Assembly: GCA_021780755.1 (NCBI GenBank)
Contig: JAJXYF010000014.1
Coordinates: forward strand, 31,888 to 95,887
From: Deltaproteobacteria bacterium
GTDB taxonomy: Bacteria > Desulfobacterota > Binatia > Binatales > Binataceae
DNA: 64,000 nucleotides
Reading direction: 5' to 3'
This document shows positions 6,327-53,061 of the stretch, piece after piece; the stretch's first letter is position 1; each line of letters starts with the position of its first letter. The notes under the pieces are model-generated. The model saw nothing but the letters and a program-made list of their open reading frames with translations. It was not told the DNA's origin and ran no database searches. The position numbers and the translations under genes are program-made.

Positions 6327-7466
6327 TCAGACCTGCTCGAAAACCGTCGTGATTCCCTGCCCGATCCCGATACACATGCTCGCGACCCCCAGCGCTACGC
6401 CCCGGCGAATCATCTCATGCACCAGCGTCACCGTCAGCCGCGCGCCCGAACATCCCAGCGGATGGCCGATGGCGACCGCACCGCCGTTGACGTTGAGCTT
6501 TTCCTCATCGATGCGGATGTCGGTATTGCATGCGAGCACCTGGGCCGCGAACGCCTCGTTGATTTCCCATAGCCCGATGTCGGCAGGCTTCAGACCGGCG
6601 CGGGTGAGCGCCTTGTGCGACGCCGGCACCGGACCCCATCCCATGATTTCGGGCCGGACGCCGGCCACCGCGGTCGCCCGAATCCGTACCTTCGGCTTCA
6701 GCCCGAGCGCCTTTGCGCGATCGGCACTCATGAGCAGGACGGCCGCGGCGCCGTCGCTGATTTGCGATGAATTCCCGGCGGTTACCTGGCCGCTCGGGAT
6801 GAACGACGGTTTCAGCGCCGCCAGCTTTTCGATCGTGGTCTCGGCGCGGGGGCCCTGGTCAATGTCAACGGTGGGGCCGCCCGGCAGCGCGATCGGCACG
6901 ATCTCCTGCTTGAAACGATCGCGCGCGGCGACCGCCCGCTGATTCGAGCGGAGCGCGAACGCGTCGGACTGCGCGCGGGTAATCCCATGCATCCCGGCAA
7001 GGCGCTCGGCTGTCATGCCCATGATGTACATCTCAGGCGGATACATCGTCAGCAGCTTCGGATTCGGATTCACACCGGCGCCCATCGGCACGTGCGACAT
7101 GTTCTCGACCCCGCCCGCGATTACGACTTCGCCGGCGCCGCACATGATTTCCTGCGCGCCGAAGTTCACCGCCTGCAAGCTGGACCCGCATTGGCGATCG
7201 ACCGTGGTGCCGGCGACTTCCACCGGCAATCCGGCAAGCAACGCGATCATCCGCCCGAGGTTGAGGCTCTGCTCGCCCGACTGGTTCGCGCAACCCCAGA
7301 CCACGTCCTCGATTTCGGCGGGGTTGAGCGCCGGGCTGCGCTCGAGCAGGCGCTTGATGCACGCGACTGCGAGGTCGTCGCCGCGCACGTCCTTGTAGTA
7401 GGCCTGATCGCGACCCGCGCGGCCAATCGGCGTTCTGATGGCGTCAACGATTACAACTTCACGCAT
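6327..7466 (-). CDS. acetyl-CoA C-acyltransferase (thiolase)
   Basis: Thiolase N- and C-terminal signatures (VDRQCGSS, NxxGGAxAxGHPxGxSG, C-terminal GxGxG). ATG 7466..7464 with GGGAGG 8 nt upstream; the track ORF's N-terminal extension is rejected. Confidence 0.9.
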   Translation of the reverse strand: MREVVIVDAIRTPIGRAGRDQAYYKDVRGDDLAVACIKRLLERSPALNPAEIEDVVWGCANQSGEQSLNLGRMIALLAGLPVEVAGTTVDRQCGSSLQAVNFGAQEIMCGAGEVVIAGGVENMSHVPMGAGVNPNPKLLTMYPPEMYIMGMTAERLAGMHGITRAQSDAFALRSNQRAVAARDRFKQEIVPIALPGGPTVDIDQGPRAETTIEKLAALKPSFIPSGQVTAGNSSQISDGAAAVLLMSADRAKALGLKPKVRIRATAVAGVRPEIMGWGPVPASHKALTRAGLKPADIGLWEINEAFAAQVLACNTDIRIDEEKLNVNGGAVAIGHPLGCSGARLTVTLVHEMIRRGVALGVASMCIGIGQGITTVFEQV

Positions 7467-7611
7467 TTCTGGAACCTCCCGATTCGCGCGCACCTGCGCC
7501 CCGACGAATGATCCAGTCTGATCATAACCATCCCGTTTCGCCCCGCACAAAGGCCTGCATTGTCTGGAACCGCGAGTGCTCGCGCAGGGGCGCCCTGCTG
7601 GCGGCGCGAGA

Positions 7612-7893
7612 TTACGCCACGAGCAACTTGATTATCGGGCGCGAACGAGTTGCCTTGGCAAAACGCAGGAGAGTCTTGACGCTGGGCAGTTGCGCGCCGC
7701 TTTCGAGGCGTGCGATCACGGATTGCGAGGTCCCCATCCGCACTGCGAGTTCGCACTGGGTCAGGCCCGCGCGGGTGCGCGCCGCGATCAATTCACGGGC
7801 AAGGTTAAACTCCTCCTCCAGCGCGTCGTAGGCGTCGCGGACTTCGCGATCCGACAGCATCTTCCGCTTGAGAACTTCCAGCCGTTTGCTCAT
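7612..7893 (-). CDS. XRE-family HTH antitoxin (HigA-like)
   Basis: 93 aa with HTH (GLTQCELAVRMGTSQSVIARLESG). ATG overlaps the stop of the upstream toxin-like ORF by 4 nt (ATGA). Confidence 0.8.
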   Translation of the reverse strand: MSKRLEVLKRKMLSDREVRDAYDALEEEFNLARELIAARTRAGLTQCELAVRMGTSQSVIARLESGAQLPSVKTLLRFAKATRSRPIIKLLVA

Positions 7894-8219
7894 GTCGCGG
7901 TCTCCCTCAGCCGCTTGAGCGCGAGTTCGATCGCGCGCGGCGGCGTCCTCCCCGTCTTCTTCACGAACGCGTGCAAAACGAGTAGCCGCTTCCCGGCCAA
8001 TGCCGTGTATAGCGCCCGGCCGATACCGGCTTTACCGTTGAACCTCATCTCTCAAAGCTTGTCGCCGAGCGGCCCCGTATGCGGCATCCCGACCTGATGC
8101 GGTCCGAAGGCCTCCAACAGTTCCGCTACACGAAGAAATCGAGCTTGCATGTCCTTTGGCAGCGCGAGCAGTTCCTTCTGCACCGCCTGGTTGAGAATAT
8201 CAACGGTCCATTCCGCCAC
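7890..8219 (-). pseudogene. RelE/ParE-superfamily toxin, Gp49-like (HigB-like), interrupted by in-frame TGA at 8054..8052
   Basis: Translation VAEWTVDILNQAVQKELLALPKDMQARFLRVAELLEAFGPHQVGMPHTGPLGDKL*EMRFNGKAGIGRALYTALAGKRLLVLHAFVKKTGRTPPRAIELALKRLRETAT matches the Gp49/HigB-like pattern (...GxPHxxxLGDGL[W/Y]ELR...LLLHxFxKKTxKTP). The stop replaces the conserved aromatic residue. GTG start at 8219. Confidence 0.6.
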
Positions 8220-13494: not shown

Positions 13495-14709
13495 CTAGCG
13501 CCGCCGCTGCCGGGCGCGGGCCGCCTGCTGGGCGCGCATCGCTTCGGCCGGGGTCATGATGAGGCGCGGCTCTTCGCGCTGATGCTGTTCCTCCTCGGCG
13601 ATAATCGCGCCGAGTTGTGCGCGCATGAAGGCCTGGAAAAACGCCCCGCGCTTCAAGTCCGCACCGTCGCGCAGGCGCGCCGCGGCGGCCGCCGCCCACG
13701 CCGCCTGCGGCCGGCGTCCGGTGCGTGCGAAGTAATACGCGGTGTCCTCCAGATGGCGACGCAGGCGCGTACCGATTTCACCCGCAAGCAACTCCGCGAT
13801 GGCGCGCTCGACGACGGTGGCCACGCGATCTTCCTGCTGCACGCGGCTCAGCACGATCACGCTGTTGCGCAGGCCCGCGATCTCGTCCGCATAGGGTTTT
13901 ACGATCGCCGGCGCGATCGGCCATGCGGCGATTTCCGGCTCCTGCATCAGATCGGCCGATGGCTCGTGCGTCAGTTCGGCGGCAAATTCGTCGTAAACCG
14001 GATGACTGAGATCGATCGGCGGCGACTGCGCGATCAGTTCGGTGCGAAGCGCGAAGAAATTGCCGACCTCGCCACGATGCGACTCGGGCGTGCGGCGCCA
14101 GGCGTCGCACAAGATGAAGTCGGCGACGCGCCAATCGGCGTCGATCAGCGAAACTCCGGCGCGCCGTTCGAGGTCCGCGCGCTCATGGCGCAGCTCTTTT
14201 CGCGTGAGTGGGGCGAGCGTGATGCCGAACAGACCGTCGCGCTCCGAGACCAGGCCCCACAAGCGCTTCAGCCCCGCGCCCGGGCGCGCCTTGACGATCC
14301 AGACGACGCGCGCGCCGTCGGCGTCGGCGGGCGAGAGCAGGGCGCTCAGGCCGATTTCAGGCGCTTGCGCGGCAGCGGTCGGAACGTCGCGCGCGGGCAA
14401 CTCAGCGAGCGGCCCCTCGATGCCGCGCTGGCGCAGCTTGAACAGCGCGCGGCGAAGCTCGCGGCGGAGCCCACCGGCCGCGCGCGTCTCCATCCGCATG
14501 AGCATCGCGGCGGACTCCGGAGTGGCGATGCTCGTGAGCGCGCGCACCAGCGCGGCGTCGGTGACGCCGGATGCGCCGCGCAAGGCCGTGAGCTTTGCGA
14601 TCGCGTCGGCCGGCGGCGCCGCCGGATCGAAGCCCGCTTCGCGCAGCTTCGCGTCTTCACCCGCGATATCCTTCGGAGAGGTTTCCTTTACGCTAGCCAT
14701 CTTCACCAA
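13495..14709 (-). CDS. hypothetical protein (Ala/Arg-rich, no recognised domain)
   Basis: 404-aa ORF with good coding periodicity on the minus strand, co-directional with the CoA-transferase. The antisense 878-aa ORF 12214..14850 is a GC artefact. Confidence 0.5.
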   Translation of the reverse strand: MVKMASVKETSPKDIAGEDAKLREAGFDPAAPPADAIAKLTALRGASGVTDAALVRALTSIATPESAAMLMRMETRAAGGLRRELRRALFKLRQRGIEGPLAELPARDVPTAAAQAPEIGLSALLSPADADGARVVWIVKARPGAGLKRLWGLVSERDGLFGITLAPLTRKELRHERADLERRAGVSLIDADWRVADFILCDAWRRTPESHRGEVGNFFALRTELIAQSPPIDLSHPVYDEFAAELTHEPSADLMQEPEIAAWPIAPAIVKPYADEIAGLRNSVIVLSRVQQEDRVATVVERAIAELLAGEIGTRLRRHLEDTAYYFARTGRRPQAAWAAAAAARLRDGADLKRGAFFQAFMRAQLGAIIAEEEQHQREEPRLIMTPAEAMRAQQAARARQRRR

Positions 14710-40461: not shown

Positions 40462-41754
40462 TCAGGCGACCGCAGCTTTGCGCAGGCGTCCGGCGACCGG
40501 CACGCTGACCCGCGCGCGCATCGCGACCACGCCGTCGTGATATTCCTCGCTCAGCACTTCGCCGTCGCGTCGCGCCATCGCGATCAGGTCGCCGCGGTTG
40601 GCCGCGAGCGTGACGCTGACTTCTTCGCGCAGGCTGGCGAACGACCGCGCGATCGCATGGAGCAGGCGGTCGAGTCCCTCGCGGCGGAGCGCAGAGATCG
40701 CGACGGTCTCGAAGCCGTTGGTGACGCGCGGCGGGAATTCGAGCAGGTCGGCTTTGTTCATCACGATCAGACGGGGCGCGGCGCCCGCGCCGATCTCCTC
40801 GAGCACGCGATCGACGATCTCCATCTGCTCACCGGCGAGCGGTGAGCTGGCGTCAACCACGTGCAGCAGCAGGTCGGCGGTGCGCACCTCTTCGAGTGTG
40901 GCCTTGAAGGCCTCGACCAGCAGGTGGGGCAAGCGATGGATAAAGCCGACGGTGTCGGCGAGCATCACGGTGGACTTGCCCGGCAGGCTCAAGCGGCGAA
41001 TGGTCGGGTCGAGGGTCGAGAAGGGGCGATTGGCGGCCTCGACGCCGGCGTCGGTCAGCGCGTTCATCAGGGTGGATTTACCGGAGTTGGTGTAGCCGAC
41101 GAGCGCGACCGTCGGGTAGGGGACTTCGAGGCGGCGCTGGCGCTGAATCGAGCGGGTGCGCTCGACATCGCGGAGGCGGGTGCGCAGCCGGGTAAGGCGC
41201 TCGCGCACACGACGGCGGTCAACTTCAAGCTGGGTCTCGCCGGGACCGCGCGTGCCGATCCGTCCGCCACCGGCGCCGGAGCCGCCGGTCTGTCGCGACA
41301 GATGGCCCCATGCGCGGGTGAGGCGCGGCTGCAGGTAGCTCAACTGCGCGATCTCGACTTGCAGTTTGCCCTCGAGGGTGCGCGCGCGCTGCGCGAAGAT
41401 GTCGAGAATCAGTTGGCTGCGATCGACCACCCGCAGCTTGAGTTCGTTTTCGAGATTGCGGGCCTGCGCGGGGCTGAGCGCGTCGTCGAAAATGGCGAGG
41501 GTGGCGCCGCGCTCGTGTGCGAGTTCGCGGACTTCGGCGGCCTTGCCGCGCCCGATGAAGGTGCGCGGATCAATGTTCTTTAGTTTCTGCTGGACCTGCC
41601 CGGCGACTTCGGCGCCGGCGCTGGCGGCGAGAGCGCCGAGTTCGGCGAGTGAATCGTCGCTGGCGATGCCGACGGTTGAACCCAGTTCAACACCGACCAG
41701 GATGGCGCGTTCGGCGTTGTCGAAAGCTGGCGTGTGCGTAAGTCCCAGAGGCAA
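40462..41754 (-). CDS. hflX: GTPase HflX
   Basis: HflX N-terminal domain and G-domain (GYTNSGKSTL, DTVGF, NKAD). Confidence 0.85.
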   Translation of the reverse strand: MPLGLTHTPAFDNAERAILVGVELGSTVGIASDDSLAELGALAASAGAEVAGQVQQKLKNIDPRTFIGRGKAAEVRELAHERGATLAIFDDALSPAQARNLENELKLRVVDRSQLILDIFAQRARTLEGKLQVEIAQLSYLQPRLTRAWGHLSRQTGGSGAGGGRIGTRGPGETQLEVDRRRVRERLTRLRTRLRDVERTRSIQRQRRLEVPYPTVALVGYTNSGKSTLMNALTDAGVEAANRPFSTLDPTIRRLSLPGKSTVMLADTVGFIHRLPHLLVEAFKATLEEVRTADLLLHVVDASSPLAGEQMEIVDRVLEEIGAGAAPRLIVMNKADLLEFPPRVTNGFETVAISALRREGLDRLLHAIARSFASLREEVSVTLAANRGDLIAMARRDGEVLSEEYHDGVVAMRARVSVPVAGRLRKAAVA

Positions 41755-42255
41755 ATCTCCCGTTAATCAGTCAGTTCATTCTAGCAGAAGCGGCGGCTCC
41801 GTCTAAGGGAATCTTAAGGTGGCTAGTGGCAGTCCGTGGCGGTCGTATCGATTCCCTGGATGGCGAGCGGTTGAAGGCACGTTGAGAGGAGGCAAGACCT
41901 GTGGATTACGTAAAAAATATTTTCGCATTTGGCGGTCTGGTTTGAGGGATATCGCGGCCTTTTCCGCCGCGATCGACCGCCGACCGCATAATTATACTCC
42001 TTTTTCGATGAGGCCGCGCGGGTCGTGATTCGGAGGGGCGAGCCTCGGTGGGGCGAACCGCGACCTTAGCGAAGTTGGAGGGTGGTGGCGGAGAGCAGTT
42101 GCTTGATTCGGCGACACCCGCGGTTGCTTCTCCGGCGCCCGCATCTCGACTCTGTCTGGCCGATCTTTTACTAGCCGCGCCCCTCCTGTGGATACTGTGG
42201 GCAGCAGAGACGATGCTTACTTGCGCCTCTCCCACACCACCATAAAACTGCAAGT

Positions 42256-43116
42256 ATGACCAAGGAGAATGAGACGAGTGAGAAAGCGGGCATCAAACCT
42301 GACTATGGGCAAAACCGCACTCTAGCCCAACTGGCGAGCCAGTTTTTTCCGCCGATCGAATTCAACATTGAATCTCTGACCCTATTCGAGCCGAAGAACG
42401 ACATTCAAACGCTCTCGACATATTTGAATTCGGTTTACTGGAAGCTCGGCCTCGCGGACTACCACGTATCAAAAGCGTTGTCAGCGATCCCGAGTGTCAT
42501 ACCTAATGATGAACCGAACAAGGGTAGCGCAGCATCGGCAATACACATGGCGTTAATGCGGGGTCACCACGACGAAGAAGTTGACCGTATGGAAATTGCG
42601 ATGCTTGAGACCGAAGCGCACGGTATTGCGGCGGCACAAGCGTTAGACTCAGTACCGGATATTCTATCGCAGGCTTTGTATCTCGCCCTTCGGCTCGACC
42701 TCAAGAAACCGATGCTTGAAGGTTTGCGAACGGTGCAGAGCGTTACGCAGGCTCTTGAGGACGCTGCTCTCAATTCTGTCAGCACGGGACTGAAGGAACT
42801 GGTCAACTCCGAAACATTTGAGTACCTGCGCGCGTTCGTGAACACCACAAAGCACCGAAGTTTGATCGACAACCTCTTCCACAGGTCACTTGTGGACTCG
42901 GAAGACTATGGTTTGACGATTTGCGCCTTCCGTTACGAGGAACGCAGCGGCAAAGTCAAAGGCTGGCCGTCTAAGACGTTCAAGGAATTTCTGGAATATA
43001 CGGCGGTCTACATGTCGGCGGCTGTGGGCGCGATCCTTAGAACCGCTGAAGGTCTGCTCGCCAGCTTTGCGGGCTGGCCTGCCGAGCGATTCTGGTTCAA
43101 GCTAGAAAAAATATGA
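42256..43116 (+). CDS. hypothetical protein, alpha-helical, in low-GC insertion
   Basis: 286-aa ORF with clear coding periodicity in a roughly 50% GC segment. No domain recognised. Confidence 0.55.
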   Translation: MTKENETSEKAGIKPDYGQNRTLAQLASQFFPPIEFNIESLTLFEPKNDIQTLSTYLNSVYWKLGLADYHVSKALSAIPSVIPNDEPNKGSAASAIHMALMRGHHDEEVDRMEIAMLETEAHGIAAAQALDSVPDILSQALYLALRLDLKKPMLEGLRTVQSVTQALEDAALNSVSTGLKELVNSETFEYLRAFVNTTKHRSLIDNLFHRSLVDSEDYGLTICAFRYEERSGKVKGWPSKTFKEFLEYTAVYMSAAVGAILRTAEGLLASFAGWPAERFWFKLEKI

Positions 43117-43469
43117 AGGTACTTTTTCGCCATGCCGCCACGCTCGCGCTTATGGGCTGGTATCTGATGGTGCCGCCGATCACCGACCAAGGACAAGTCG
43201 AACTCGACGTACCGATGTTGCAATGGCAGCAGGCCGACGTATTCGATGCCGCTTCGGCTTGTCAGCACGAAAAGGAGAACGAGCTTGTGTGCGATGCGGC
43301 GATCATCTCTCGAGGCACGGCAAGCGATATCAACCACTCTTGCGGTTTCGCAGCCGGAACCACTCCCCGTATCGATGATGTAATACGACTGGCAGCGCGA
43401 TTTCGGCTAAAGCGTTATGCGCACGCTCTATGCGTTGCATCTGACGATCCGCGCCTCAAGGGGAATTGA
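43113..43469 (+). CDS. hypothetical small protein with hydrophobic N-terminus and 4 Cys, in low-GC insertion
   Basis: 118 aa. ATG overlaps the stop of the upstream ORF (ATGA), indicating a two-gene operon. N-terminal MKVLFRHAATLALMGWYLMVPP looks signal-peptide-like. Confidence 0.5.
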   Translation: MKVLFRHAATLALMGWYLMVPPITDQGQVELDVPMLQWQQADVFDAASACQHEKENELVCDAAIISRGTASDINHSCGFAAGTTPRIDDVIRLAARFRLKRYAHALCVASDDPRLKGN

Positions 43470-43481
43470 GGATGTTCCAGC

Positions 43482-43503
43482 GCGCCGGATTCGGCACTTT
43501 TAC
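43482..43503 (+). terminator. weak hairpin plus T-tract after the two-gene island operon
   Basis: GCGCCG-gatt-CGGCAC followed by TTTTA, 15 bp after the stop at 43469. Confidence 0.25.
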
Positions 43504-43524
43504 AGATAAGTTCACCACTGCGAT

Positions 43525-46500
43525 TCAGCGGAGTTGGAGGGCGGAGGGGGACAGGAGTTGGTGGATTTCGGCGACGAAGCCTTCGGTCGGGGCGACGCGA
43601 TAGCCGTCGCCGAGCAGGAAGACCGCCTCGCGGCCGTCGTCGAAGCCGAGATGGAGGTAGGTGATCGAGGTGCCGGGGTAGCGCCGCAGGAGTTCCTTGA
43701 GCTGCGCCATCTCGCCGTTGGCCAGGCGCTCGCGGGGCGCGCGGATGCGGACCTCGCGCACGGCCTCGGTCAGGGCGGCGCCGATGGGGCGCAGGTCGTC
43801 CACGATGATTTGCGCGCGCTCGTCGTCAACGTCGAGCTTGCCGCGCGCCACCAGCGGTTCGTCGCCCATGATCACCGCCTCGAATTTCTGGTAGGCCTCG
43901 GGCCACACGATACATTCGACGGCGCCGTCGCGGTCCTCGAGCGAGAACGTCGCGTAGCGCTTGCCCGACTTGTTGTTCTTGAGCTTGACCGCCTGCACCA
44001 CACCGGCGAGGCGCACCTGGCTGCCGTCGGGCGCTGAGGGCAGGTCGGCGGTGGTCAGTTTGCCGATGCGCTTGAGTTCGCGGTCGTACTTATCGAGCGG
44101 ATGGGCGGTGATGTAGAAGCCGAGCGTCTCCTTCTCGAACTTCAGAATTTCCTTTTGCGGCAATTCCTCGACCGTTTCGCGCAGCGCGAGTATCGGGGTG
44201 TCGCCGCTCTTGCCGAACAGCCCGATCTGATTACGCGCGGCGTCGCTCTCGGCCTTCTGGGTGATCTTGAGCGCGTCCTCGACCAGCGCGAGCAGGGCCG
44301 CCCGCGACATGCCGGTGAAGCCCATCGCGCCGCATTTGATGAGCGCCTCGAGCACGCGGCGATTGACGATCTGGGTGCCGACACGCATGCAGAAGTCGGC
44401 GAGGTTTTTGAACTCGCCGCCGGCCTCGCGCATCGCGATAATCTCTTCGGCGGACTTCTGGCCGACGCCGCGAATCGCGCCCAGCCCGAAGCGAATCGCC
44501 TCGCCGCTGACGGTGAATTTGACCCGGCTCTGATTGACGTCGGGCGGCAGAATCGCGATGCGCATCTCGCGCAGCGCCGCGATGTTCTTGTAGCTCTTGC
44601 CGGTGTCGTCCATATCGAGCGACATCAGCGCGGCCATGAACTCGCGCGGGAAATGCGCCTTCAAGTAGGCGGTGGTGTAAGTCGTTAGCGCGTAGGCGGC
44701 GGCGTGCGAGCGATTGAAGCCGTACGAGGCGAAGGTCTGGATTTTCTCGAAGATGGATTCCGCGAGGCCCTTGTTGACGCCGTTTTTGACGGCGCCGGAG
44801 ATAAAGCGTTCGCGCTCACGCTCCATCACGGCGAGCTGCTTCTTGCCCATCGCGGCGCGCAGAATATCGGCTTCCTCGAGGGTGTAGCCGGCGAGCGCCT
44901 GCGCGGCGCGCATCACCTGTTCCTGATAAATGATGACGCCGTAGGTGTCGCGCAGCACCGGTTCGAGCAGTGGATGGTCGTACTCGACCGGCTCCTTGCC
45001 GTGCTTGCGATGGATAAACGGCTCGACCATCCCGGCGTCGAGGGTGCCGGGACGAAAGAGCGAGATCGCGGCGATCACGTCCTCGAAGCAGTTGGGCTTG
45101 AGCTCGGTCAGGAAGCGGCGCATGCCGGAGCCTTCCATCTGGAAGACGCCGACGGTGTCGCCGCGCGCGAGCAGGCGAAAGCTGTCGGGGTCATCGAGCG
45201 CGAGGCGCGTGAGGTCGGGTGCGGTCTGGCCGCTGGCGGTGATGAGGTCGAGGGTGTTGGTGATCAGGGTGAGGTTCTTGAGCGCGAGGAAGTCGAACTT
45301 GATGAGGCCGATTTCCTCGACCCCCTTCATCGAATACTGGGTGATCGAAATCGCTTCCTCGGAGCGCTCCTTGTCAACGTAGAGCGGCACCATGTCGGCG
45401 AGCGGCAGGTCCGAGATGACGACGCCGGCGGCGTGCCGCGAGGCGTGGCGCAGGAGGCCTTCGAGCTTGAAGGCGTAGTCGAAGAGTTCGGGATTTTTCT
45501 TGCGCTCGTCGGCGAGGCGCGGCTCCATCTCGAGGGCGTCTTTGAGCGGGAAGTCGCGACCCTGCTTGGGTGCCGGATAGAGTTTGACGATGCGATCGGT
45601 TTCGGCGAAGGAGAGTCCGAGCACGCGGCCGACGTCGCGAATCGCCTGCTTGCCCTTGATGGTACCGAACGTGATGATCTGGGCGACGCGATCGTCGCCG
45701 TACTTTTTGCGCACGTAGGTAAGCACTTCATCGCGGCGCTCGAAGCAGAAGTCGACGTCGATATCGGGCATCGATTTGCGCCCCGGATTGAGCCAGCGCT
45801 CGAAGAGCAGCTTGTGCTCGATCGGATCGACCTCGGTGATGCGCAATGCGTAGGAGATCAGGCTGCCGACGACCGAGCCGCGGCCGGGCCCGACCGGGAT
45901 GCCGATGGAGCGCGCGTAGTTGATGAAGTCGGCGACGATCAGCATGTAGCCGGAGAAGCCCATTTCGCGGATGACCGGCATCTCGCGGTCGAAGCGCTCG
46001 AAGTAGGGCGTTTCGTCGAAGTCGCCGCGGCGCGCGTGCATCTCGGTGAGGCGCACGGCCAGTCCGTCGCGGACGTTGCGGTCGAGCAATTCCTCGAGCT
46101 TGGCGTCGGTGAGTTCGTTCGCGCTCGAGTCGGGTCGAAAAATCGGAAAGTGAAACTTGCCGAATTCGAAGTCGAAGTCGATGCGGTTGGCGATCTCGAC
46201 GCTGTTGCGCACCGGTTCGGAATCGGCGCCGAAGGCCGCGGCCATTTCGGCCGGCGTCTTGACGTAAAGCTCATCGGTATCGAAGCGCCAGCGCGACTCG
46301 TCGGCCATGGTCTTGCCGGTCTGGATACAGAGCAGGACCTCGTGGGCCTTGGCGTCGTCGCGATGCAGATAATGGCAATCGTTGGTGGCGACCAGCGGGA
46401 GGCCCTCGGTGCGGCCGATATCGCGCAGCCGATCGTTGAGCGGGCCGTGCAGGGCGTTGTCCTGGAGTTCGAGGTAGAAGCGGCCGGGGAAGGTGCGCGC

Positions 46501-47001
46501 ATACCAGGCGGCGGCTTCGCGCGCGCGGTCCATGCGATCGGCCTTGAGCGCGCGTGCGATCTCGCCGGAGAGGCATCCGGAGAGCACGATCAATCCGTCG
46601 GAGAGTTCGGCGAGGATTTCCTTGTCGATGCGCGGTTTGTAGTAGAGGCCTTCCTTGTAGGCGGCGGTCAGGAGGCGGCACAGATTGCGGTAGCCGACGC
46701 GGTTTTGCGCGAGCAGGATCAGATGGAAGTTACCACCCGCTTCGTAGTCTTCGCTCTTGTTGTGGGGGATGCGGTCGCTGCGTTTGCCCGGCGCGAGATA
46801 GGCTTCGCATCCGATGATCGGCTTGATCCCGGCGGCCTTGGCCTTGGCGTAGAACTCGACCGCGCCGAACATGTTGCCATGGTCGGTCATCGCGATCGCG
46901 GGCATGCCGGATTTCTTCGCGTGTTCGATCAGCGGGCCGATCTTGTTGGCGCCGTCGAGCAGGCTGTACTGGGTATGGACGTGCAGATGAACGAAACTCA
47001 T
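43525..47001 (-). CDS. dnaE: DNA polymerase III alpha subunit
   Basis: 1158 aa. PHP domain (HLHVHTQYSLLDG), polymerase core and OB-fold regions. Confidence 0.95.
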   Translation of the reverse strand: MSFVHLHVHTQYSLLDGANKIGPLIEHAKKSGMPAIAMTDHGNMFGAVEFYAKAKAAGIKPIIGCEAYLAPGKRSDRIPHNKSEDYEAGGNFHLILLAQNRVGYRNLCRLLTAAYKEGLYYKPRIDKEILAELSDGLIVLSGCLSGEIARALKADRMDRAREAAAWYARTFPGRFYLELQDNALHGPLNDRLRDIGRTEGLPLVATNDCHYLHRDDAKAHEVLLCIQTGKTMADESRWRFDTDELYVKTPAEMAAAFGADSEPVRNSVEIANRIDFDFEFGKFHFPIFRPDSSANELTDAKLEELLDRNVRDGLAVRLTEMHARRGDFDETPYFERFDREMPVIREMGFSGYMLIVADFINYARSIGIPVGPGRGSVVGSLISYALRITEVDPIEHKLLFERWLNPGRKSMPDIDVDFCFERRDEVLTYVRKKYGDDRVAQIITFGTIKGKQAIRDVGRVLGLSFAETDRIVKLYPAPKQGRDFPLKDALEMEPRLADERKKNPELFDYAFKLEGLLRHASRHAAGVVISDLPLADMVPLYVDKERSEEAISITQYSMKGVEEIGLIKFDFLALKNLTLITNTLDLITASGQTAPDLTRLALDDPDSFRLLARGDTVGVFQMEGSGMRRFLTELKPNCFEDVIAAISLFRPGTLDAGMVEPFIHRKHGKEPVEYDHPLLEPVLRDTYGVIIYQEQVMRAAQALAGYTLEEADILRAAMGKKQLAVMERERERFISGAVKNGVNKGLAESIFEKIQTFASYGFNRSHAAAYALTTYTTAYLKAHFPREFMAALMSLDMDDTGKSYKNIAALREMRIAILPPDVNQSRVKFTVSGEAIRFGLGAIRGVGQKSAEEIIAMREAGGEFKNLADFCMRVGTQIVNRRVLEALIKCGAMGFTGMSRAALLALVEDALKITQKAESDAARNQIGLFGKSGDTPILALRETVEELPQKEILKFEKETLGFYITAHPLDKYDRELKRIGKLTTADLPSAPDGSQVRLAGVVQAVKLKNNKSGKRYATFSLEDRDGAVECIVWPEAYQKFEAVIMGDEPLVARGKLDVDDERAQIIVDDLRPIGAALTEAVREVRIRAPRERLANGEMAQLKELLRRYPGTSITYLHLGFDDGREAVFLLGDGYRVAPTEGFVAEIHQLLSPSALQLR

Positions 47002-51170: not shown

Positions 51171-51246
51171 TGGCTGGGCGGGAAGGATTCGAACCTTCGA
51201 ATGCCAGGTCCAAAGCCTGGTGCCTTACCAGCTTGGCGACCGCCCA
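51171..51246 (-). tRNA. tRNA-Gln (anticodon TTG)
   Basis: 76-nt cloverleaf TGGGCGGTCGCCAAGCTGGTAAGGCACCAGGCTTTGGACCTGGCATTCGAAGGTTCGAATCCTTCCCGCCCAGCCA. 7-bp acceptor stem, anticodon loop CTTTGGA, encoded CCA. Very close to E. coli tRNA-Gln(UUG) as recalled. Confidence 0.85.
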
Positions 51247-51630: not shown

Positions 51631-53061
51631 TTAAGAGGTGGTCAAGATTCGGTAGTCGGTGATTTTTGGAACCATTGATCCGATTTCTTCAGGAGAAAAG
51701 CCGATTTCGCGCAGCAAACAACCCTGAATTATCAAACGAAGTAGCGAGGTAGCGCGAAACAGCTCGCGCCCGGTGAAGACGTCCGGGTTGTTATTATGGG
51801 CGTGCACGATCCCGCGATTGCGCGTCGCCACTGCACGTCTGATAAAAGTGTCCTCAACTAACGTACGAATGATTTCGGGCTGTTCATCATACAAATCTTG
51901 GAGACGACGACGCGCACTAGGCTCGTTACCGAGAATCTTCTCGTTGGCCCATTCGAACACTTCGGGATCTGTCTTGACAGATGACAGAAGCAACTCTCGT
52001 CGGCGCTTATATTCAGCGGGGTTCAATTGCTCGTTGCTATGTGTTGCCCGGTGATAGGCTTCACAAGCTACAAATGCACTGAAAAATCTAAATTCCAAGG
52101 GAACATCAGAGTCTAGTGGACCAGTGGAGAAGTGAAAGTCGAGCGTCGCAGGATATCGGTCACGGCCCTCCTGCCAACTGTTCATACGAGATGGGAGGGT
52201 AGCTCCCAGACCCATTGCAGAGAAGAGCATATTGGCCGGGTGTTTTCGATCGGGCAGCGGCACAGCCTTCTTTTGCGTAAACAGTATAGGCACGGGTACA
52301 GGCCAACTTTCGCCATTTGGCAAAAGTTGAACGAACCGCTTACTGGTGCCGATTAATGATGTCATTGGAACGCGAGAACTGGTTGCTAGTTGCAGGAAAT
52401 ATTGGAGCGATCTTACGGGACCATTCAGGAATTTATCGAGTGTTTGCACGTTAGGGGTCTTGAATCTAACTATGCTTTTCACCCTTACACCTGCGCTCGG
52501 TGGCATAACGCTGTGATTCCAAAGTCCATTAGACTCAGCAGATGCTTCGAACGAACCAATGCGGAACTTCAGAGGTGGCAGTTGCTGATAACGAATGCTG
52601 CTCTGATAAGGAGGCTCTGTCGAGGTGTCATGAACTATTCCGCTAGGGCCGATCCACTCCTCGAGATTAAACATTCCAACTTCGAGTTCATGGAAGGTGA
52701 CGGCGTCCGATGCCGGCAAATGTTCACCAAGCACCATCCAGTGGCTCTTGTATTGCGAGGTTTTTTCGCCCGATCCACTGAGCGAGGATTCGACCTCTAG
52801 AGAGCCAAAAAGAGACATTCCGTGGCCTTGTACCGTTCGCCCCCAGATTACCGTGTGATCCCCCAGCTTTGCTCGACGTGCACGCAAAGGATCTAACGTG
52901 CCAACGAGTTCTAAGTTGATCCCGTCCGTGGGAGAAAACATCAATCGACCCGGTATCGGCTCGCTGTCTTCCGTCCACCAGCGTCCCAGACATTCCCAGC
53001 TCTCGATCATGCTGAGTTGTGGAGGTGCGCCCTGGATCCCCGGTGCCTTGTCTTTAATCAC
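51631..53061 (-). CDS. hypothetical protein with C-terminal HEPN-like Rx4-6H motif (RNRGIVH); candidate ApeA-like abortive-infection/defence protein
   Basis: 476-aa ORF in a roughly 50% GC segment inserted between ispE and tRNA-Gln-prs. GTG start 53061, or ATG at codon 18; no obvious SD. Confidence 0.5.
   Translation of the reverse strand: MIKDKAPGIQGAPPQLSMIESWECLGRWWTEDSEPIPGRLMFSPTDGINLELVGTLDPLRARRAKLGDHTVIWGRTVQGHGMSLFGSLEVESSLSGSGEKTSQYKSHWMVLGEHLPASDAVTFHELEVGMFNLEEWIGPSGIVHDTSTEPPYQSSIRYQQLPPLKFRIGSFEASAESNGLWNHSVMPPSAGVRVKSIVRFKTPNVQTLDKFLNGPVRSLQYFLQLATSSRVPMTSLIGTSKRFVQLLPNGESWPVPVPILFTQKKAVPLPDRKHPANMLFSAMGLGATLPSRMNSWQEGRDRYPATLDFHFSTGPLDSDVPLEFRFFSAFVACEAYHRATHSNEQLNPAEYKRRRELLLSSVKTDPEVFEWANEKILGNEPSARRRLQDLYDEQPEIIRTLVEDTFIRRAVATRNRGIVHAHNNNPDVFTGRELFRATSLLRLIIQGCLLREIGFSPEEIGSMVPKITDYRILTTS

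Follow-up and report, generated by a model that had tools for sequence, protein, structure and literature searches.

A low-GC two-gene islet at the 3' end of dnaE in a Binataceae genome and the two unannotated protein families it points to

How did two genes of low guanine-plus-cytosine (GC) content come to lie between hflX and dnaE in a bacterium of the family Binataceae, what may they encode, and do they belong together? The genes reside on a stretch of 64,000 nucleotides (nt) of contig JAJXYF010000014.1 (GenBank assembly GCA_021780755.1, positions 31,888 to 95,887), which is called the window throughout and provides all coordinates given without a locus name. The upstream open reading frame (ORF), A (42256..43116, +), encodes 286 amino acids (aa), and the downstream ORF, B (43113..43469, +), encodes 118 aa; compared loci carry L-numbers and homologous proteins P-numbers. 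We find that the interval is an insertion of ~1.46 kb that was acquired horizontally, a conclusion strongly supported by empty sites in relatives, a duplicated dnaE end and low values for GC and for GC at third codon positions (GC3). The explanation that we favour on balance for the locus as a whole is a decayed islet in the dnaE 3' end, carrying a HEPN-like toxin, A, and an exported protein, B, which would act independently of each other.

The top repeat family of the interval is a 41-nt direct repeat (42068-42108 versus 43527-43567, 80% identity), the right copy of which corresponds to the last 13 codons of dnaE. The repeat can be extended to ~60 nt at ~80% identity with one 1-nt indel, and it then takes in the stop codon together with a few further bases. 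Thus extended, the right, attR-like copy (43517..43575, -) forms the current dnaE 3' end and spans the ~17 terminal codons, the stop codon and ~8 nt of downstream sequence, and the left, attL-like copy (42057..42116, -) forms a displaced pseudo-3' end of the same gene. Read on the minus strand, the left copy ends in ..IKQLLSATTLQLR, with its TAA at 42066-42068, and the live dnaE gene in ..IHQLLSPSALQLR. Local alignment of the two copies gives a score of 52, which was reached by none of 500 shuffles (mean 18.9 +/- 2.3, maximum 27). When the last 42 nt are compared with the dnaE ends of the ten relatives, the displaced copy resembles each of them (10/10) better than the live end does, with an advantage of 1-6 matches, and it has AGCAACTGCTCTC in common with L020.

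These relatives were collected by a scan for the dnaE C-terminus with one genome per species, which led to ten Binataceae loci. None of them (0/10) contains A or B, and a duplicated dnaE end is absent from all ten. Empty dnaE-hflX junctions, in which hflX lies ~100-380 bp after dnaE, are present in L020, L021, L022 and L029, and the dnaE C-terminus of L020 is 95% identical to that of the window. In L023, L025, L026 and L027 the contig breaks off within ~300 nt downstream of dnaE. At the same junction, L024 (1123-3137 of the Binataceae metagenome-assembled genome contig JADMIL010000046.1) carries a restriction-modification (R-M) module with genes for a C5 cytosine methylase (E 3e-68), an HNH endonuclease and Vsr (E 2e-28), and L028 a flavin-reductase gene; no dnaE-end repeat was found around either insert. 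The dnaE-hflX junction looks like a variable hotspot in Binataceae. The arrangement of the window recurs with a 100% identical A in contigs from several samples (L016-L019), so that the islet is fixed in this population.

The base composition sets the insert apart from its surroundings. GC amounts to 0.523 for A, 0.563 for B and 0.541 for the whole insert as compared with 0.681 for hflX, 0.641 for dnaE and 0.633 for the window, and GC3 to 0.62 for A and 0.59 for B as compared with 0.83 for hflX and 0.87 for dnaE. An earlier note on this DNA, made from the sequence alone, had put the two genes at about 50% GC; the contrast is real, the figure slightly low. Its description of a foreign, compact, co-oriented segment is borne out by the empty junctions, the duplicated dnaE 3' end, GC and GC3, and the R-M module at the same site in L024. 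The opposite outcome that it had envisaged, a conserved core-genome segment, was looked at and does not apply, as the nearest relatives have an empty site.

Judged by their homologues, A and B are real genes. For A this follows from homologues at 55-69% identity, from 630 remote cluster representatives and from a ratio of nonsynonymous to synonymous substitutions (dN/dS) against four homologues of about 0.15-0.3, a range below 1 that indicates purifying selection; for B it follows from about 40 homologues.

If the interval is inserted DNA, by which route did it arrive? The element would have integrated site-specifically into the dnaE 3' end, so that the last ~14-17 codons of dnaE would have been replaced by an element-borne copy and the native end pushed 1.46 kb away, where it would survive as a pseudo-end beside the hflX promoter region. 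We infer this mechanism from the repeat and the empty sites. Integrase-mediated insertion into a 3' end classically leaves behind a duplicated gene terminus that runs up to the stop codon, with the displaced copy nearer to the ancestral sequence. The current dnaE 3' end (43517..43575) was probably supplied by the inserted element, and the islet is probably what decay has left of an element that integrated site-specifically. Several observations weigh against this: the insert contains neither an integrase nor, besides A and B, an ORF that has homologues, five integrases taken from loci of A homologues had no tblastn match in the 64-kb window, the repeat lacks an identical core of more than 10 nt, and there is no tRNA at the integration site, ARAGORN having detected none near the insert. 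Since the insert encodes no recombinase, it is either a remnant or a unit moved in trans, and one possibility is that the 1.46-kb repeat-bounded unit represents a miniature element that has no recombinase of its own and was mobilised in trans into the dnaE 3' end. No dnaE-end repeat was found near A or B homologues elsewhere, and the window contains no repeat array and no attC-like inverted repeat, so that the islet does not qualify as an integron cassette. A rather improbable alternative is that the segment arrived by homologous recombination at a variable dnaE-hflX hotspot and that the repeat is a by-product. The other cargo at this junction in L024 and L028, which is free of dnaE-end repeats, would agree with such a route, as would the failure to find an integrase in insert or window; however, homologous exchange would not duplicate a gene end, let alone produce a 60-nt terminus duplication that ends at the stop and has the displaced copy closer to the ancestral sequence. 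It is barely credible that the interval is native core DNA, be it with ORFan genes of odd composition or non-coding with chance ORFs. Nothing beyond the missing annotation speaks for this view, whereas the nearest relatives have empty sites, homologues of both ORFs are numerous and selection on A is purifying.

Acceptance of a site-specific insertion in the dnaE 3' end leads to the question of what the islet carries. In agreement with the earlier note, which had seen no recognisable domain in either protein, Pfam, NCBIfam and PADLOC recognise neither A nor B. Protein A gave 0 matches in the three collections, and the family consensus sequences nothing significant, with no more than sub-threshold noise in PADLOC; the PADLOC run that the note had proposed (PADLOC-DB v2) assigned 0 families to A and 0 to B. 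In PHROGs, A matches phrog_37823, a family of unknown function (E 1.9e-13), for which a literature search returned no papers. Nine close homologues, 55-69% identical, stem from Binataceae-type metagenomes, and a profile search of 1.84 billion cluster representatives retrieved 630 relatives at E <= 1e-3 and 258 at E <= 1e-10. Members of the family are typically 230-250 aa long and are spread over phyla, at GC values of 0.29-0.62. The gene was not matched in the phage collection by tblastn, nor did an IMG/VR scan with A patterns find anything.

An alignment of 101 family members reveals a set of nearly invariant residues in A. N196 and H200 are conserved in 101/101 sequences, K199, D135 and F225 each in 100/101, H70 and A121 in 98/101, Y190 in 96/101 and H131 in 95/101. 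The motif [V]N196-T-T-K199-H200 lies at the end of a long helix, and position 195 ahead of it is V in 80, T in 11 and A in 6 of the sequences and never R. Residue 131 (42646-42648) is Asp only in the A protein of the window and its closest homologue, P0002; these are the same two proteins whose genes are followed by a B gene. The AlphaFold2 (AF2) model of A is of high confidence (predicted local distance difference test, pLDDT, 91.6; predicted template modelling score, pTM, 0.88) and comprises the long helices 49-77, 107-144, 186-201 and 242-271, two short helices between the second and the third, and a four-strand meander at 206-237. Foldseek comparison of the model with the PDB returned generic bundles only (E >= 0.12), and a PDB sequence search with the family profile returned nothing.

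As far as gene neighbourhoods can tell, A is carried by mobile elements and defence islands as a lone cargo gene, which is an association and not functional proof. Its relative in L001 is accompanied by RHS toxin genes, a helix-turn-helix protein, integrase fragments and a DUF2971 protein matching the PADLOC candidate PDC-S31 (E 4e-44), and that in L002 by a MobA/MobL relaxase, a resolvase, two integrases and DUF5677. In L003-L006, A directly follows genes for a tyrosine integrase and a Ser/Thr kinase matching PD-T4-6 (E 9e-31) and is overlapped at its downstream end by an unrelated 425-aa ORF (6882-8159, P0008 lineage), which has no Pfam or PADLOC match; this locus may be a multi-gene defence islet. 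On the Pseudomonas syringae plasmid pMG1_RT685 the A relative, WP_172687607.1, adjoins a zeta toxin. Vibrio europaeus pVEu carries a single-gene relative, WP_171802483.1, between 126-nt repeats spaced 0.8-1.3 kb, in an array that also contains Hhe and a DUF4917 protein, and on sequence grounds this relative is an integron-type (attC) cassette. Chromosomal integron cassettes are reported in a preprint to be rich in defence systems (bioRxiv 10.1101/2024.07.02.601686). Among metagenomic A loci we noted a type ISP R-M system (L045), a type I HsdR (L048), Schlafen/PDC-S50 (L046) and HNH_2 (L055), and in L040 (SDBV01000298.1, 1077-3560) an A domain forms the N-terminal part of an 827-aa fusion with a UvrD/GajB-like superfamily 1 (SF1) helicase. 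The fusion gene adjoins a radical-SAM/SPASM gene. No recurrent partner gene of A emerged, the neighbours in other loci being similar neither to each other nor to B. It is plausible that A is a defence or toxin gene that works on its own, a role for which it makes a reasonable candidate.

What kind of activity might such a protein have? HEPN domains have been described with variable inserts between helices 2 and 3 and, in Csx1, a beta-hairpin after the motif (PMC3710099). The layout of A follows this description, with a conserved Asp in helix 2 (D135 in 100/101 sequences, helix 107-144), a variable helical insert, a helix 3 that finishes in N-x-x-K-H, and after it a beta insert and one more helix. 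However, the Rx4-6H motif expected at the end of helix 3 is absent, the position being taken by N196-x-x-K199-H200 with H200 at the C-terminal end of helix 186-201; some accepted HEPN families likewise keep the His but lack the Arg (PMC3710099). Pfam HEPN families gave 0 matches for A and for the family consensus, and 3/101 members matched PF18730 HEPN_Cthe2314, the best with an E-value of 0.016. Comparison of the A family by hhalign with an ApeA-HEPN protein encoded elsewhere in the window gave a probability of 1.6%, and with a 186-aa RGLAAH protein from L015 no signal. Since the architecture agrees with the published description but the Rx4-6H test failed, A is judged to be HEPN-like by architecture, on the basis of its model, and not a demonstrated HEPN member. 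The protein would act as a stand-alone cytoplasmic toxin that is triggered by infection or stress, and its activity would most likely be that of a nuclease on RNA, by analogy with HEPN-type abortive-infection (Abi) proteins.

The second protein, B, is predicted to be of an exported type. The earlier note had ascribed to it a hydrophobic N-terminus and four Cys, which we confirm (C50, C60, C77 and C107). It has no match in Pfam, NCBIfam or PADLOC. Its homologues number about 40, measure 80-190 aa and are mostly 30-40% identical, P0012 reaching 65%. The family follows the pattern 'G-WYLMxPP ... PLsxW..FDsA..C ... C[IV]A[ST]DDPRLK', in which W16-Y17-L18 (within 'G-WYLMVPP'), C50 and D112-P113-R114-L115 (within the C-terminal 'C[IV]A[ST]DDPRLK') are invariant, two Cys are conserved and the middle is unalignable. 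B has a signal-like segment at its N-terminus. The segment before WYLM varies among distant members, where the motif comes after differing putative signal peptides, and one paralogue (L012 4129-4458) has a lipobox, L-I-G-C, before WYLM; WYLMxPP should therefore be part of the mature protein and be preceded by a predicted export signal. In line with this, the AF2 model of B (pLDDT 88.9) has WYLMV as a core strand paired with strands 39-44 and 106-109. Taken together, the signal-like segment, the lipobox paralogue and the conserved Cys suggest that B is exported, and it may be a small Sec-exported, disulfide-bonded periplasmic protein.

As judged by its distribution, the B family is expanded in Binataceae-type genomes and also carried by phages. 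Copies stand alone in ordinary chromosomal contexts in L009-L011 and L014 and form tandem arrays in others, with four copies within 2.6 kb in L012 (2700-5279) and two in L007/L008 (5001-5924). The family is also present in a prophage-like region with terminase and primase and in four IMG/VR viral contigs with GC values of 0.40-0.56. The ends of the family are conserved even at the DNA level and the middle is hypervariable; recombination between paralogues via the conserved ends is conceivable from this pattern.

Do A and B form a system? Outside the lineage of the window (L016-L019), the two occur together on one contig only, L015, where A is 69% identical. The B-like ORF of L015 begins at the A stop (TGATG), and its first ~65 nt and last ~45 nt are ~88% identical to B of the window, while the part between them shows no relationship and is interrupted by in-frame stops and two frame changes; this disruption could reflect decay or an assembly error. 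Two further features of L015 were recorded. Just downstream of the A/B-like pair, a 186-aa ORF (1387-1947) without Pfam or PADLOC match contains an R-G-L-A-A-H (Rx4H) motif in a helical context, a sequence feature that hints at a HEPN protein, and the end of the contig is similar to the N-terminal part of an insertion sequence (IS) transposase (ENLALRHQLHVLRRQ). No B-family ORF stands beside A in the six close loci L001-L006, in L030-L033 (two plasmid and two further loci) or in the 22 metagenomic loci L035-L056, and no A relative stands beside the B paralogues of L007-L014 or L057-L060. Because all A loci but L015 and the lineage of the window are without B, the A-B pairing appears to be recent and lineage-restricted. 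The two genes are likely co-transcribed. Their functional dependence is not supported, and we infer that they function independently. B would most likely have hitch-hiked, or would act at the envelope, for example in phage exclusion, independently of A. The reading of the pair as toxin and immunity protein, small defence system or effector and chaperone, which the earlier note had favoured, is thus not supported: there is no co-occurrence outside the lineage of the window and L015, and no PADLOC match. When it was checked whether the two genes travel together, homologues of A and B were found not to co-occur beyond L015, which is essentially the finding that the note itself had named as speaking against a pair; it does not speak against A as a solitary gene of defence islands.

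In principle, the data on A and B could also be read in other ways, and two features sit uneasily with a HEPN-like toxin that is independent of B: owing to the exchange of H131 to D, the copy of A in the window could be altered or inactive, and the adjacency of A and B with overlapping stop and start in L015 argues for a functional or at least a transcriptional linkage. That A and B constitute a true two-component system, either a toxin with its immunity protein or a cytoplasmic effector with an envelope partner, nonetheless has a low probability. The overlap of A stop and B start, ATGA in the window and TGATG in L015, would suit such a system, as would the adjacency kept in the closest A homologue at 69% identity and the observation that a distant A relative in L033 is also followed by a small secreted protein, which is unrelated to B. 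Set against this are the lack of B beside other A genes and of A beside other B genes, the in-frame stops and frame changes in the B-like ORF of L015 and the lack of a PADLOC match; moreover, the predicted export of B is a poor fit with a cytoplasmic antitoxin or chaperone, as an exported B could not directly neutralise a cytoplasmic toxin. A different objection concerns the nature of A itself, which may not be HEPN-like at all: it could be a helical-bundle metal-dependent enzyme or binding protein with H70, H131(D), D135 and H200 as ligands, and its presence in defence islands could arise from another activity, for example that of a phosphohydrolase or of a protein degrading or sensing nucleotide signals. 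We consider this unlikely, although it carries appreciable weight. More speculative, and doubtful in its full extent, is the proposal that the A family constitutes an unrecognised group of stand-alone anti-phage/Abi effectors, either an Arg-less HEPN branch or a new helical-bundle nuclease, and that the H131D sub-clade may have recruited the exported B, linking an envelope event to a cytoplasmic effector.

The remaining features of the locus are consistent in their arrangement with the earlier note, which had described two ORFs with an ATGA overlap between the hflX start at 41754 and the dnaE stop at 43525. This is confirmed, with A at 42256-43116, B at 43113-43469, and hflX (40462..41754) and dnaE (43525..47001) both on the minus strand. 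Gene A stands as a lone representative of its unannotated helical-protein family, and the start of B overlaps its stop. The 500-bp non-coding leader that had been reported upstream of A is indeed 501 bp long but composite. It begins with native dnaE-hflX intergenic DNA (41755..42056, -) outside the insert, which holds the hflX promoter region; its hflX-proximal ~50 nt can be aligned with relatives, and the minus strand has a promoter-like site at 41805-41778. The displaced dnaE 3' end follows, and then ~140 nt of element-borne DNA (42117..42255, +), the presumed promoter and 5' untranslated region of A, which is conserved with the closest A homologue (81% identity to L015:1-111, the limit of that contig). 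Between the B stop and the convergent dnaE stop, a 55-nt spacer (43470..43524) contains no convincing terminator: the weak hairpin plus T-tract noted previously is no better than chance, a terminator scan giving 0 sites and the fold a z-score of 0.17. Neither this spacer nor the leader of A forms a significant RNA fold, Rfam gave no match on 41500-43800, and no second copy of A or B was found within the window.

Two observations concern other parts of the window. A second low-GC islet, 8 kb from the A/B islet, occupies 51631-53061 (-) with a GC of 0.50-0.53 as compared with ~0.63 and lies beside a tRNA-Gln gene (51171-51246, -). It consists of a single gene with ApeA_NTD1 and HEPN_Apea domains (precomputed Pfam annotation of the identical contig L016), which may be another integrated defence gene. 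At 14550-14645 (+), ARAGORN reports a 96-nt tRNA-His whose anticodon is at position 39. This length is unusual among bacterial tRNAs; the gene may carry an insertion, or the call may be wrong.

Taken by itself, the islet is of an ordinary kind, and its value lies in the protein families it points to. The A family is sizeable, has members in Vibrio and Pseudomonas and lacks a curated annotation; it is a concrete candidate for a new family of single-gene defence systems or toxins, a candidacy that rests on R-M and defence neighbourhoods, the integron cassette, plasmids and the fusion to a GajB-like helicase. The B family, likewise unannotated, is common to phages and chromosomes and combines conserved ends with a hypervariable middle. 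Beyond the proteins, the locus offers a clean example of the gene-terminus duplication left by integration, at a junction that is variable in Binataceae, being occupied by the islet in one genome and by an R-M system in another.

Among known systems, the islet as a whole most resembles tyrosine-recombinase islands and prophage remnants in gene 3' ends, which bring along a substitute for the 3' end. As in these, the insert lies between imperfect direct repeats of the target terminus, the target gene is intact and its displaced end lies on the far side, GC is low, relatives have empty sites, and relatives of the cargo adjoin tyrosine integrases. It differs in its size of only 1.46 kb, in having neither integrase nor excisionase, in its target, which is dnaE and not a tRNA or tmRNA gene, and in a repeat that is ~80% identical without a long identical core. 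The closest known systems to A are the HEPN stand-alone Abi and R-M-linked proteins, i.e. AbiD/F, AbiU2, AbiV, AbiJ, Cthe_2314-like and integron-cassette HEPN proteins (Anantharaman et al. 2013, PMC3710099). Unlike these, A has [V/T/A]-N-x-x-K-H where they have Rx4-6H, it has no significant match to any Pfam HEPN family, and it possesses a four-strand beta insert after the motif as well as the extra near-invariant His H70 and H131. With Gabija GajB-type UvrD helicases, the PD-T4-6 kinase, PDC-S31 and PDC-S50, relatives of A have neighbourhoods in common and, in L040, one fusion, whereas A of the window has no such partners and matches no PADLOC model. For B, phage 'moron' or superinfection-exclusion-type exported proteins may serve as an analogy only: they too are small, exported and fast-diverging and are found between phage modules and in chromosomal islets, but B has no sequence or fold similarity to characterised exclusion proteins, and its family stands apart through its conserved ends, its hypervariable middle and its many copies in ordinary chromosomal contexts.

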